51,671 bases of DNA, from IMG/VR virus record IMGVR_UViG_2718218104_000010, one strand, 5' to 3'. Below are positions 18,001 through 24,000 of this stretch, one piece after another; the first letter of the stretch is position 1; the number at the start of each line of letters is the position of its first letter. The position numbers were made by a program. The stretch is from a virus. Lineage: Duplodnaviria > Heunggongvirae > Uroviricota > Caudoviricetes.

Positions 18001-21000
18001 TCGCCCGGTTAAGCTCATCCAGAGAAGCCGCCGTATATTCAATTCTGCGACCATCTTTCTGGACAGACACCACCCGTTTACCGGTTAATAAATCAAGGCG
18101 CGCCTGACGCAGCGCCTGCAGTTCAGCGACTGTAACCATTCACTCCTCCGGACAGCTTCGCTGCCAGTTCTTTCAGGGTTGGCCGGGTCGTCTCTTCTTC
18201 CCGGGATTTTGCCAGTACAGCCAGATCAAGCTGCCAGCGTTGCACGGACACACGTAATGCCGCGTAGGCATACACCAGGCAGTCCAGCGCTTCGTTACGC
18301 CGCTTTTTGTTATCCCACAGCAGACGCATCTTTCCTTTTTCCCACTTCTCCACCAGCTCTTCCGCCACCAGTTGCTGCGCCTCTGTCTGCGAAAAAATCT
18401 CCGGATCATCAGGAAAACGGATGGCATACGACGTGGCTTCATCCGCAGGCGAGGGATCGGCTTTCATACGGGCATAGAGAATTTCTTTTGCGGTGTCCGT
18501 TCCCACTTCACACAGATACACGCCCCGCTGATTGCGGGTTTTTGGCATGGTGATCACCGGCTTGCCATAGACAGATGCGCCTTTTACCGGCAGCACCCGG
18601 AAAACACCGTGTTTTTTTGATCTCTGATAAACAATTTCACCATCGATCCCCCCGGTGTCCCAGCAGACACGGGAAATAGTCATTTCGGTGCCATCCGCAT
18701 GGCGGTATTTTTTGTTGATCGCCGCATCCACACGTAACAGCGTCTCTTCCTCATCAGGACGCCCCATAATGATGATTTTATCCACCAGAAAGGCTTCCTC
18801 TCCCGGAGCCCATCCCCAGACATACATCTCAAAACGGTTTCGCTGCGAGTCAATGCCCGCCGTCAGATAAACCACCCGGGCAGGCACCGCCGCCGTGTAA
18901 CGCACCACCTTATCCATCAGTACCTGGTGATCGAGTTTTTCGCCCACGGCCTCTTCCCAGGTCTCGCCCAGCGTGGTGTTCACAAAGGTTTTCAGGCCGT
19001 TGGGATCTTTCAGTGCATCCAGCCAGTCATAGACAATCTGTACCCAGGTGGTGAACGGACTGTACGCCGTCCAGATATGGAACATGATGGAGCGCGGCGG
19101 CGGAATTTCATCACCCCGGGCGCTGAAAAACGTCAGACCGTCACGGGTCCACATGCCCGTGTTTTCACAGATCCACCGCCCGTTGCTCTGGTCCAGTTCA
19201 GACTGATGGATCACGCAGCCATGATGTTCACAGAGGTAGAAAACACTTTCAGGGCTGTCCTTCTCCCATTTAAGCCCAAAAGGCGTGGACTCATCGCCAA
19301 ATTTCAGATACTGCGCCTCCCCACAGTGCGGGCAGGGCACATAAAAACGCATAAAATGCGCCGACTCGTTAGCGGCTTTTTCGATCTGGCAGGTGCCTTT
19401 GATTTTAGGCGTCGAGCCGCGAATGGATTTTGGCCACACCGACCCCTCAATACGCTTATCCCCCAGCAGGGTTGGCGAGCCCTCTTTTTCGACATCCGGC
19501 TCGAACGAGGAAAGTTCGTCATAGCAGACCACGTCAACGGATTTTTCACGGTAGTTTTTGGCGGCAGCGCCGCCCAGGCACCAGAAACCGACGCCCGATG
19601 AAAAGCGTTTCAGCGTGAGAGTATTGTCACGATGTTTACGACCCAGCCATGGGGAAAGGTCTTTCAGGCATGGCACGTTCCGAATCGTCGCCTCCACGTG
19701 AGACTTCATAAAATCTTCAGCGGCAGAATCCGTGGGCTGAAAAAGCAGACTGTTTCGGGATTTATGCTCAATAAAATACCCGCCCCCCCCCCAGCAACAT
19801 CTTTGTATAGCCAACACGGGCAGATTTAATCAGATTAACAGTGCGGATCTGATCATTCCCCATACTGTTCATGATGGCGATCTGGAATGGCAGCGTTTTC
19901 CATTCGCCCTCACCATATGAAGATTCTTTAGGCAGATAATAATTTTGATCAGCCCATTCAACTGGCGTCACCGGCAATGCCCTTATCAGGGGCTGTAATG
20001 CAGTTGTGACAGCGCTCATCATATTATTCAGTTGTTGCTCTGATATATTCATCAAGTAAATCCGGTAATTTATCCCCTGCCCGCGCACACTGATTTGCCC
20101 CCTTAGCAATAAGGGTTTTCAGATGGTCAAGATGGCGCGGTGTTAAATCAGGAAACTGTCGCTGCATGGATAAAGGGATGGAATCAAGCGTACTGGATAA
20201 CGCCATTGCCAGCTTACTGAGGGCAAAAATACAGAACCCGGTGTCAATCAGTTTTCCTTTTGACACCTCATTTTTTAAGTAAGCGTACAGCGAGGGCCGT
20301 ATTGACGGGGATGTGTTATTCAGCTGGCAGTGCTATGCGCCACGGAAGCAGTTCGCTGACCCGGTTGACCGGCCAGTCTGCTATGACGCCAAGCACATGG
20401 CGAAGGTAGCTTTCTGGATCCACGTCATTCAGTTTGCACGTCCCGATCAGGCTGTACAGTAGCGCTCCCCGCTCACCACCATGATCAGAGCCGAAGAACA
20501 GGAAGTTTTTACGACCCAGACTGACCGCCCGCAGGGCATTTTCAGCGATGTTGTTGTCGATTTCCACCCAGCCATCGTTCGCATAGTACGTCAGTGCCGG
20601 CCACTGGTTAAGTGCGTACGCGAACGCCTTCGCCAACTCTGAGTGTCGCGACAGGGTCTTCATCTTTTCACGCAACCAGCTTTCCAGGGATTTCAACAAC
20701 GGTTTCGTTTTTCGCTGACGTTCAGCAAGCCGCTGCTCTGCCGGCATTCCCCTTATATCCGCCTCTATGGCGTACAACTGACCGATCTGCTCCAGGGCTT
20801 CTTCCGTCAGTGCTGACGGGATGCGGACGTGCACATCGTGGATCTTTCGGCGGGCATGAGCCCAGCAGGCAGCTTCCGTTATCCCACCATTGCGATACAG
20901 CTCGTTGAACCCGGCGTACGCATCCGCTTGCAGCACACCGCTGAAGCAGGCAAGATGAGTCTGCGGATGGATGCCTTTTCTGTCCGGGCTGTAAGCGAAC

Positions 21001-24000
21001 CACACTGCAGGTGCCAACGCTGACCCTGCATTGCGGTCATCACGAACATACGCCCACAACCGCCCGGTCTTCGTCTTCTTATTACCCGGCAGCAGTACCT
21101 GGACCGGGGTATCATCGGCATGGAGTTTGCCGTCAGTCATGACATAGCCATGAAGCGCCTCTTCCAGCGGAGACAGCAGCCGGCAGCATGCATCCACCCA
21201 GCCCGACAGCAGTGAACGCCTCAGCTCCACACCTTGCCGGCCGTATATTTCTGACTGGCGATACAGCGGGGTGTGCTCTGCATACTTCGAGGTCAGCACG
21301 CGGGCCAGCAGCCCCGGTCCGGCGATACCCCGCTCGATGGGCCGCGAAGGTGCAGGTGCCTGCACGATGGCATCGCACTGAGTACAGGCATGTTTTTCCC
21401 GTACCGTCCGGATAACCCGGAAGGCGCTACGCATCAACTCCAGCTGTTCGGCGGTATCCTCGCCCAGATAGCTCAGTGAACCGCCGCAGTTCGGGCAGCA
21501 CGGCGCCGCAGGCAACAGTCGCTTTTCGTCACGGGGTAGTGATTCAGGGAACGGCTTACGGGTGCGGGTCTGACGCAACGGACGCTGTACTGCCGGGTCA
21601 TACACCCTACCAGTCAGCGTATCGCTCTCTTTCTGAAGCCGGTTCAGATCGGCTTCCATTTGTGCGATACGGCGGGAGACTTTTTCGGAACGACTGCCGA
21701 AGTTCATCCGGCGGAGTTTATCCAGCTGCGCCTGCAGATGGTCTATTTCGCGCTCCCGGTTGCTCAGCTTTTCCTGCAGGGCGTGGATCAGCGCTTCCTG
21801 TTCGGCCAGGCGCTGTTTCAGCAGGAAGATGTCGTCAGAAGAGATGTCGTTCATAAGCCCGTATTTTACCGGGCTTATTCTGTGACAACCAGGATAAAGA
21901 GATTTACAGCATGGTCAGGGAGGTCAGCAGCCGCTTAGGCTGTCGCCAGTCGATACCTTCCAGCAGCATCGCCAGCTGCGCCTGCGTAAGGAACACTTTG
22001 CCATCACGGGCTGACGGCCAGGCGAAGCGCCCACGCTCCAGCCGTTTGGTCAGGAGGCACAGTCCGTCACCGGTGGACCACAGCAGTTTAACCTGACTGC
22101 CGCTGCGGCCCCGGAAAATGAAAACATGGCCGGACATGGGATCGTCTTTCAGCGCCGTTTGTACTTTCGCAGCCAGGCCGTTGAAGCCATTTCTCATATC
22201 GGTGATACCGGCAACCAGCCAAATTTTGGTCCCGGAAGGTAACGGGATCATCGCTTCAGTTCCTGTATCAGCAGAGTCAGGAGCTTTTCGCTGACATTGC
22301 CATTGAAGCGGAGCGTCCCGTGCCGGAACGTTACCTCACAGCTGATACTGAGGGGTTCCGGGTCCTCTGCGAGCGATTCTGGCTGTTCGGCAGCTGCATC
22401 GAGAGTCACAGGAAGTAGCTGGGGGCTCTCTGAAGAAGGTAATAGCAGCTTTCCCTCGCGCCATTGTTGTCGCCATTTGAACAACAGATTGGCGTTAATG
22501 CCATTTTCAAGAGCAAGTTTTGAGATGGATATCCCGGGTTCACAGGAGGCAGCAACGAGCTGCTGTTTAAATTCGGGAGGATAATTAGGGCAGCCTTTTC
22601 GCCTGCCGGGAGTCACATTTTTCTGCATATCTGATACTTTGGTTCCCACTACTTATTTGGTGGACACCACTTTGTCTAATTCGTCAGATTCTGACCAGAC
22701 GGTTCAGGCTGTACGCTTTTTTAACTGCTGTGTAACAGCCTGTTCTGCTGTCAGTTCCCATCTGGCAATAAGCAATTTCTCCTCATAGTCGTCTTCGCTA
22801 TCGCCATCAGGCACATCGTTTTTACTTCTCCTCAGATACGATATGTAAAAATCGCGCCAGGCATCCAGATCCAGTTGCCCTCGCTTATTCGATATCGGGG
22901 CACCCGGCAATTTCTGCAATCTGCGAAGCTGGCGATCGGTCAGACTTAAATGCCTGGCAACTTCAGTCTGCGTAGCCACTCCTCACCTCGCAAAAACTCT
23001 CACCTCACAATCACAACAAAACCGGTCATGTCCGGTTTACATGTCTGTTTTTTGTTCATGTCCGGTTCACAGAAGACCTGTTTTTATATTTTTCATATAG
23101 TTAACTTGAAGAGAAACCGGACATGGATCCCGGAAAATTTTCATAAATAGCGAAAACCCGCGAGGTCGCCGCCCCGTAACCTGTCGGATCGCCGGAAAGG
23201 ACCCGCAAAAATGATAATAATTATCATCTACATGTCACAACGTGCATCTACGCCATCAAACCACGTCAAATAATTAATTATGACGCAGGTATCGTATTAA
23301 TTGATCTGCATCAACTTAACGTAAAAACAACTTCAGACAATACAAATCAGCGACACTGAATACGGGGCAACCTCATGTCAACGAAGAACAGAACCCGCAG
23401 AACAACAACCAGTTACAGATGCTTTATTAAGGAAAAAAACAGCCAGCACTGACTTTCGGTGGAGAGGTGCTGGCTCAGAAGGATAGTTGGATTTCACATG
23501 ATACTTATGCCTGGCGGTATATTTTCTGACAGACAGTGACGGGTGTTGTCAAGATATTGTGTCATTTATAACCTGAATCAGGGGAGGCCGGAATGTTATC
23601 TGGCATTTTTAGCAGAGCCTGAATGCCATAATCACGGCTCCCGGAGTTGGCCGTCAGTGGGTGACACTGGCGGCTTTTTTGTTTTTCTTTACTTTCATTT
23701 TCTGTCGGCGGTGACGGAGACATACATCAGATGGAAAAAATCACAACAGGTGTGTCATACACCACGTCAGCGGTGGGGACGGAATACTGGTTGAACCGCC
23801 CCGGGAATCCTGGAGACTAAACTCCCTGAGAAAGAGGTAAACAGGATGACTAAAAATACACGTTTTTCCCCCGAGGTCCGTCAACGGGCAGTCCGTATGG
23901 TTCTGGAAAGTCAGGGCGAATATGACTCACAATGGGCGGCAATTTGTTCCATTGCCCCAAAGATTGGCTGTACACCAGAGACTCTGCGTGTGTGGGTTCG

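Follow-up and report, generated by a model that had tools for sequence, protein, structure and literature searches.

An ISEc8 copy with a shortened end in the terminase small-subunit gene nu1 of an Sp4-like Escherichia coli O157:H7 prophage

The stretch of DNA analysed here, a window of 51,671 nucleotides, is an Sp4-like prophage of E. coli O157:H7 that is collinear with Sp4 of strain Sakai. In this prophage the terminase small-subunit gene nu1 is separated into two parts by an insertion sequence. A first-pass annotation had described the insertion as an IS66-family element that interrupts nu1 precisely, with a clean boundary defined by an 8-bp target duplication, and had attributed the inactivation of packaging to insertion and not to deletion. 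The features on which the discussion below is based are collected in Table 1.

Table 1. Features in and around the interrupted nu1 gene, with positions in the window.
Feature	Position	Strand	Remark
Terminase large-subunit gene A	18123..20052	-	Immediately downstream of nu1; frameshifted in the window
nu1, 3' part	20024..20270	-	Codons ~89-169 and stop; holds most of the Phage_Nu1 Pfam match
tnpC-distal direct repeat TTTTTTAA	20271..20278	.	Junction canonical
ISEc8 body	20279..22716	-	2438 bp certain; end placeable at 22716, 22718 or 22720
tnpC-distal terminal inverted repeat (IRR)	20279..20304	+	Tip GTAAGCGTACAGC intact
tnpC, 512-aa IS66-family DDE transposase	20316..21854	-	PF03050
tnpB, IS66 Orf2-like accessory protein	21904..22251	-	Overlap with tnpA is ATGA
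tnpA (HTH_Tnp_1)	22248..22628	-	Frame open further, to GTG at 22649
tnpA-proximal terminal inverted repeat (IRL), remnant	22695..22716	-	Without the 4 terminal nucleotides GTAA
tnpA-proximal direct repeat TTTTTTAA	22717..22724	.	First 2-4 T's sit where the canonical tip TTAC would
nu1, 5' part (N-terminal half of terminase small subunit)	22725..22979	-	Codons 1-85, 255 nt, GTG start

The two copies of the octamer TTTTTTAA are separated by exactly 2438 bp, as had been described. In silico excision of positions 20279-22724 (2446 bp) yields a single open reading frame on the minus strand, composed of 169 codons and a stop (510 bp), which starts with the GTG at 22979 and has its stop codon at 20024-20026. 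The gene is split at codons 86-88 of the 169, and both halves are kept unchanged. The restored gene is identical at 510 of 510 positions to an intact gene annotated as "terminase small subunit" in many O157:H7 genomes, and its 169-residue product matches PF07471 (Phage_Nu1) over residues 49-150 with E = 1e-18. Consequently, the earlier proposal that excision restores an in-frame Nu1 of about 169 codons holds, i.e., when the outcome that would have spoken against it was looked for, the two halves were found to join into the intact allele.

Uninterrupted relatives of the gene are found in two settings, in both cases directly upstream of A: the Nu1 gene of an Sp14-like prophage is 100% identical to the restored window gene, and a gene that five PhiR12 phage records annotate as Nu1 shows 98.8% identity to it. 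The genome of strain 4276 (NZ_CP017442.1), which is 100% identical to the window over positions 8179-34824, harbors an intact nu1 paralogue at another locus (2070088-2070597); the genomes with the insertion also hold the empty-site sequence, uninterrupted, in a paralogous prophage. In the identical record, PGAP treats the 5' part of the interrupted nu1 as a pseudogene fragment and the 3' part as "terminase small subunit, incomplete, missing N-terminus". The nu1 stop codon lies within A, which starts at 20052 at the head of the head gene block, and the head-tail joining, portal, protease and decoration genes follow. Counting both strands, the 51.7-kb window holds 11 occurrences of the octamer, and a repeat search placed the 8-bp direct repeat outside the top families, as expected at such a short length. 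A chance repeat at the edges of the element was considered and rejected; an exact 8-bp match at both edges is expected at a frequency of only about 4^-8 per register.

The assignment of the element to the IS66 family is borne out and can be narrowed to ISEc8. Pfam domains are found for each of the three transposition genes, i.e., PF01527 (HTH_Tnp_1; E = 1.8e-12), PF05717 (TnpB_IS66; 1.2e-38) and PF03050 (DDE_Tnp_IS66; 2.1e-106), together with zf-IS66, LZ_Tnp_IS66 and DDE_Tnp_IS66_C, and all three reading frames (tnpA, tnpB and tnpC) are open. In the IS66 family the tnpA stop and the tnpB start reportedly overlap as ATGA. This overlap is present in the window, where the plus strand reads TCAT at 22248-22251, such that 22248 is the last position of tnpA and 22251 the first of tnpB. 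The element is identical at 2437 of 2438 positions (99.96%) to the ISEc8 copy of pO157, and both PGAP and the Sakai record name it ISEc8. It is oriented in the same direction as nu1 and A, and no second ISEc8 sequence was found in the window. Members of the IS66 family (IS66, IS679; Han et al. 2001, Gourbeyre et al. 2010) are reported to carry the genes in the order tnpA-tnpB-tnpC, to have GTAAGCG ends and to generate 8-bp duplications, and the copies compared below agree with these features. Compared with the family in general, the window copy differs only in a damaged tip and in nothing at the family level.

This damage becomes apparent when the element is compared with copies that reside elsewhere. 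Three independent plasmid copies define a canonical ISEc8 of 2442 bp with the ends GTAAGCG...CGCTTAC and perfect 8-bp duplications: those of pO157 of strain TW14359 (CGTTGAAC), pEntH10407 (ATTTGTGC) and Citrobacter freundii pCFR17_1 (TTCGGTCA). All three harbor the same three genes as the window copy and have both tips intact, whereas 4 bp are missing from the window copy on the tnpA-proximal side; at the tnpC-distal end, the pO157 and C. freundii copies read GTAAGCGTACAGCGAGG, as does the window copy. The same ends are seen in nine relatives from other genera, which are those for which both ends and the flanks could be recovered under a strict filter in a contig scan of genomes. Here, the start is GTAAGCG in 9/9 and the end is CGCTTAC in 8/9 and CGCATAC in one. 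Four of these relatives have perfect 8-bp flanks, and in a fifth the flanks match at 7/8 positions. The other four of the nine are without matching 8-bp flanks.

Read in the register of the IRR, the tnpA-proximal end of the window copy is AAAAGCGTACAGCC, i.e., the 5'-GTAAGCG tip is gone. The junction on this side reads ...GTACGC/TTTTTTAA where ...GTACGCTTAC/TTTTTTAA is expected, and the absence of these 4 bp brings the net insert down from 2450 to 2446 bp. The inverted-repeat register, with an offset of +4, places the end of the element at 22720. The flanking repeat is 8 bp only if the element is taken to be 2438 bp; counted from the position of the canonical tip it is 4-6 bp, and the Sakai record draws the element as 2440 bp, which corresponds to a 6-bp repeat. 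Judged by the window sequence, an element of 2438 bp with an 8-bp repeat, one of 2440 bp with a 6-bp repeat, and one of 2442 bp whose tip has changed and whose repeat is 4 bp would fit equally well. The words "precisely" and "clean boundary" in the first-pass annotation are therefore not borne out, and the comparison with ISEc8 references that it proposed agrees in identity but not in length (2438-2440 bp vs 2442 bp). The loss of the IRL tip is damage to a single copy, and membership in the family is not in doubt; the comparison of the ends with those of ISEc8 likewise did not speak against the identification.

The shortened junction is not confined to the window. In Sakai Sp4 (NC_002695.2, positions 1187387-1189826), the same insertion is found with both junction sequences, the same gene order and the same split nu1, and the insertion with these junctions, including the 4-bp gap, is present in 290 complete genomes. 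The canonical junction, in which TTAC is restored (...CGCTTACTTTTTTAA... / ...GGCTGTACGCTTACTTTTTTAACTGCTG), was absent from the nu1 site among 5426 complete E. coli genomes; the query with TTAC restored had no 100% match and found the 290 genomes at 98.7%, a difference that is the 4-bp gap.

These data very probably reflect insertion of one ISEc8 copy in the middle of nu1 of Sp4, accompanied by loss of the prophage's own Nu1; the likely course at the junction is an 8-bp duplication followed by a loss of 4 bp. In this sequence of events, ISEc8 would have transposed into TTTTTTAA and generated the usual 8-bp duplication, after which 4 bp, i.e., TTAC or equivalently TACT or ACTT, would have been lost on the tnpA-proximal side. 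Most economically, the TT in the IS tip would have mispaired with the TT in the duplicated target, a slippage event for which the predicted loss is exactly 4 bp. Such a loss would have removed the conserved terminal nucleotides of the tnpA-proximal inverted repeat.

The sequence does not, however, reveal in which order events took place at the damaged junction, because a 2438-bp element with a true duplication would give the same string, and the search of the 5426 genomes yielded no direct witness of the deletion. Accordingly, a possible, albeit doubtful, alternative is that the element was already 2438 bp when it arrived, having been cut at the donor 4 nucleotides inside the tnpA-proximal repeat, such that the 8-bp duplication is genuine and nothing was lost later. 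In its favor, the 2438-bp segment is bordered by a direct repeat perfect at 8/8 positions, a length that is usual for duplications in the family. This alternative is difficult to reconcile with the full GTAAGCG tip in all other copies examined (three plasmid copies and nine relatives), or with the plasmid search, in which 36 of 40 sampled rows match up to window position 22718 only, i.e., through 22718 rather than ending at 22716. Furthermore, the TT...TT microhomology can explain why the loss would be exactly 4 bp, and no unusual cleavage is needed. The mechanism of the IS66-family transposase is still poorly characterised. It is rather unlikely, but conceivable, that in an aberrant transposition this enzyme cleaved 4 nucleotides inside the element's own repeat and so produced a natural copy that was "dead on arrival" and became fixed as a stable marker of the O157:H7 lineage.

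A further explanation, in which a full 2442-bp element (20279-22720) now ends in TT instead of AC and has only a 4-bp repeat, TTAA, at its flanks, is highly improbable. It agrees with the inverted-repeat register, which ends at 22720, and with the presence of TTAA on both sides, but it requires two substitutions exactly at the tip as well as an atypical 4-bp duplication, while the canonical copies all make 8-bp repeats; in addition, the substitutions must by coincidence have turned a 4-base flanking repeat into one of 8 identical bases. An assembly or sequencing artefact, as the source of the insertion or of the 4-bp gap, is rejected with near certainty. Nothing specific speaks for it beyond the location of the junction in a T run, which is prone to miscounts on some platforms; the 290 complete genomes that share the junction come from many laboratories, the Sakai reference among them, and a homopolymer miscount cannot remove an A and a C from the tip.

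Returning to transposition followed by a 4-bp loss, removal of the terminal nucleotides of the IRL suggests that the window copy can probably still supply transposase but has probably lost the ability to transpose as a unit. An intact tip would be required for such movement, judging from DDE transposons generally and from the conserved ends of the IS66 family. The probable immobility also fits the finding of the same site and the same junction across the 290 genomes.

As regards packaging, the claim of inactivation by insertion rather than deletion holds for nu1 itself, and Sp4 cannot make its own Nu1. It does not hold for the prophage as a whole, where several other lesions are found and packaging in trans has been reported, which corrects the view that the single insertion in nu1 is what stops packaging. 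In the window, gene A reads with a +1 frameshift owing to a single additional G in a homopolymer (a C run at 19783-19792 on the plus strand), which may be real variation or a long-read error; the major capsid gene is truncated and the holin gene holds an IS629-type element. Compared with Sakai Sp4, the strain of the window adds IS629-type insertions at 23791-25101 and ~37530-38840 and the extra G in A, none of which touches nu1::ISEc8. Disruption of Sp4 nu1 by ISEc8 was described by Asadulghani et al. 2009 (PMC2669165), where Sp4 DNA was found experimentally to be packaged still, "most likely" by the Sp14 terminase, which is an inference of those authors. The Nu1 proteins of Sp4 and Sp14 were reported to be identical, and the cos sites are identical according to a figure legend and nearly identical according to the Discussion (PMC2669165). 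In strain 4276, the paralogous gene for the large terminase subunit is likewise annotated by PGAP as frameshifted.

The insertion was thus already known, since NC_002695.2 (Sakai) carries a repeat_region "ISEc8 Family: IS66" within "prophage Sp4, lambda-like phage" and the 2009 report describes it; this annotated insertion is the reason given there why Sp4 is without a terminase small subunit of its own. The significance of the present analysis is slight and mostly a matter of bookkeeping, as the insertion is ordinary apart from the loss of four bases at one tip. For the element, this loss means that ISEc8 ends defined from the window copy would be off by 4 bp.

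The window is collinear with prophage Sp4 of E. coli O157:H7 Sakai and extends from tccP2 to the integrase gene adjoining yccA (see the table). In the Sakai record (NC_002695.2), 1161092-1210882 is annotated as "prophage Sp4, lambda-like phage", and within it a repeat_region at 1187387-1189826, "ISEc8 Family: IS66", lies between two fragments of nu1, the terminase small-subunit gene; the junction sequences of that copy are those of the window. The genome of strain 4276 (NZ_CP017442.1) is 100% identical to window 8179-34824 and, over the 8179-51671 compared, differs only by the last of three IS629/IS1203-type (IS3 family) copies.

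Features of the window and their coordinates
Feature	Position	Strand	Remarks
Tandem array in tccP2 (Tir-cytoskeleton coupling protein gene)	1-831		141-bp unit repeated 5.9 times (99% matches); the matching record annotates tccP2 as a frameshifted pseudogene
Major capsid gene	14144-14407		Short N-terminal fragment directly abutting the major tail gene
sodC (Cu/Zn superoxide dismutase)	about 15078-15605		Virulence-related cargo, among tail genes
Gene A (terminase large subunit)	18123-20052	-	Split into two frames
Homopolymer in A	19783-19792		C run on the + strand
nu1, C-terminal portion	20024-20270	-	Stop at 20024-20026
Octamer TTTTTTAA	20271-20278
ISEc8	20279-22716	-	Between the nu1 halves; the end may be placed at 22716, 22718 or 22720
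tnpC		-	DDE_Tnp_IS66, zf-IS66, LZ_Tnp_IS66, IS66 C-terminal element (Pfam)
tnpB		-	TnpB_IS66 (Pfam)
tnpA		-	HTH_Tnp_1 (Pfam)
tnpA/tnpB overlap	22248-22251		ATGA
Octamer TTTTTTAA	22717-22724
nu1, N-terminal half	22725-22979	-	GTG start at 22979
IS629-type copy	23791-25101		Inside the holin gene; absent from Sakai Sp4
PerC-family regulator (pchA in Sakai)	about 27740-28054		Virulence-related cargo, between lysis genes and an IS629 copy
IS629-type copy	28217-29527
tRNA genes Arg-tct, Arg-tcg, Met-cat (ARAGORN)	31988-32237		Downstream of the Q antiterminator region; the CAT tRNA is annotated tRNA-Ile (ileZ) in Sakai and PGAP records, which would need a modified anticodon
IS629-type copy	about 37513-38840		Absent from Sakai and strain 4276

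As described in the first-pass annotation, the two octamers are separated by 2438 bp, and in-silico excision of 20279-22724 (2446 bp) yields a single minus-strand open reading frame of 169 codons. The product is a real nu1 allele, more than merely an open frame, because many O157:H7 genomes carry an intact gene, annotated "terminase small subunit", that is identical to its 510 bp (510/510), and the gene annotated Nu1 in five PhiR12 phage records is 98.8% identical. The restored protein matches Phage_Nu1 (Pfam, E = 1e-18), and strain 4276 carries the intact allele at a second locus. ISEc8 cuts nu1 at codons 86-88, which parts the N-terminal half from the C-terminal portion bearing most of the Phage_Nu1 match.

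The element belongs to the IS66 family, as originally proposed, and is specifically ISEc8, as identified by its Pfam domains, the PGAP label ("IS66-like element ISEc8 family transposase"), the Sakai annotation and the copy on pO157 (strain TW14359), which differs at one of 2438 positions. ISEc8-like sequence is widespread: of 5426 complete E. coli genomes, 4274 gave some match to a 2646-bp query made up of the IS and 100 bp of flanking prophage at either end. The ISEc8-like copy on the ETEC plasmid pEntH10407 (2905-5502) has another IS66-family element, of the ISCro1 type, as its neighbour, with the first gene of that element ~150 bp away; two distinct family members adjoin there.

Canonical ISEc8, measured in three independent copies, is 2442 bp long, starts with GTAAGCG, ends with CGCTTAC and is flanked by a perfect 8-bp duplication (CGTTGAAC in pO157, ATTTGTGC in pEntH10407 and TTCGGTCA in a C. 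freundii plasmid). Among nine further relatives from other genera, all share the start and eight the end (CGCATAC in the other); the flanks are perfect 8-bp repeats in four and match at 7 of 8 positions in a fifth. In the window, the tnpC-distal junction is canonical (TTTTTTAA followed by GTAAGCGTACAGCG). The tnpA-proximal junction has GGCTGTACGC, TTTTTTAA, CTG in place of the GGCTGTACGCTTAC, TTTTTTAA, CTG expected of a canonical insertion, and the first-pass description of a precise insertion with a clean boundary is not supported. Thus, this junction is 4 bp short and the insertion adds a net 2446 bp instead of 2450 bp, consistent with a plasmid search in which 36 of 40 sampled rows stop matching the window at 22718, i.e., after CGCTT. 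The inverted-repeat register puts the ISEc8 tip at 22720 (offset +4), and the Sakai annotation draws a 2440-bp element without the terminal GT. The sequence fits equally a 2438-bp element with an 8-bp repeat, 2440 bp with 6 bp, or 2442 bp with a changed tip and 4 bp; all three readings leave the conserved tip without its terminal A and C.

The 4-bp lesion is old and fixed, because a query with the junction restored, run against the 5426 genomes, found the window's junction in 290, all at 98.7% identity (equivalent to the 4-bp gap), and the undeleted canonical junction at 100% in none. An assembly error is rejected, given that these 290 genomes share the junction. In the expected junction, CGC-TT-AC-TT-TTTTAA, the TT dinucleotide recurs 4 bp apart, such that slippage or microhomology-mediated deletion across the repeats would remove exactly 4 bp (TTAC or ACTT) and leave the observed string. 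Of the histories considered, this one is the likeliest, at somewhat better than even chances. Clearly less probable is the model implicit in the first-pass annotation, in which transposase cleavage at the donor fell 4 nt within the repeat and a 2438-bp element was inserted with a true 8-bp duplication; it agrees with one boundary reading of the junction, but such a sub-terminal cut is without precedent among the copies examined. Two tip substitutions combined with a 4-bp duplication, the 2442-bp reading, would be very improbable. DDE transposases as a rule need the outermost nucleotides at each end of the element, and the copy is therefore probably immobile, with TnpA, TnpB and TnpC still encoded intact.

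Because both halves of nu1 are base-for-base intact, the gene was broken by insertion, not deletion, as first claimed. That this insertion is what blocks packaging in the prophage does not follow: the capsid and holin genes are also damaged, and gene A is frameshifted in the window. The head-tail joining region of the prophage carries a deletion that truncates the capsid gene (annotated "major capsid protein, incomplete" by PGAP; 267 bp in Sakai, ECs_1110), and the holin gene of the window's strain is interrupted by an IS629-type element. In A, one extra G in the homopolymer shifts the frame: Sakai Sp4 has CTG followed by 8 G and a single 654-aa frame, whereas the run after CTG has 9 G in the window. 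Twelve rows from a spread sample of complete genomes were near-identical (identity of 99% or more); of these, seven have the run length of the window, four are shorter by one base and one is longer by one. A frameshift is likewise flagged in the Sp14-like paralogue of strain 4276, which reads GGAGGGGGG here. This variation may be real and slippage-prone, or may be long-read homopolymer error. The IS genes point in the same direction as nu1 and A, and late transcription would therefore read through the IS into A.

Sp4 was scored defective in repressor, excision, recombination, head, major tail and packaging functions (Asadulghani et al., PMC2669165). Its DNA was excised, amplified by regional replication from the neighbouring Sp5 and recovered in DNase-resistant particles; its packaging was ascribed "most likely" to the Sp14 terminase, on the grounds of identical Nu1 sequences and nearly identical cos sites (Discussion; identical in the Figure S8 legend) (PMC2669165). 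The ISEc8 disruption of Sp4 nu1 is an ordinary IS insertion that is already known, because the Sakai record annotates it and Asadulghani et al. (2009; PMC2669165) reported it. The sole detail added here is that its tnpA-proximal end is 4 bp short and probably disabled.
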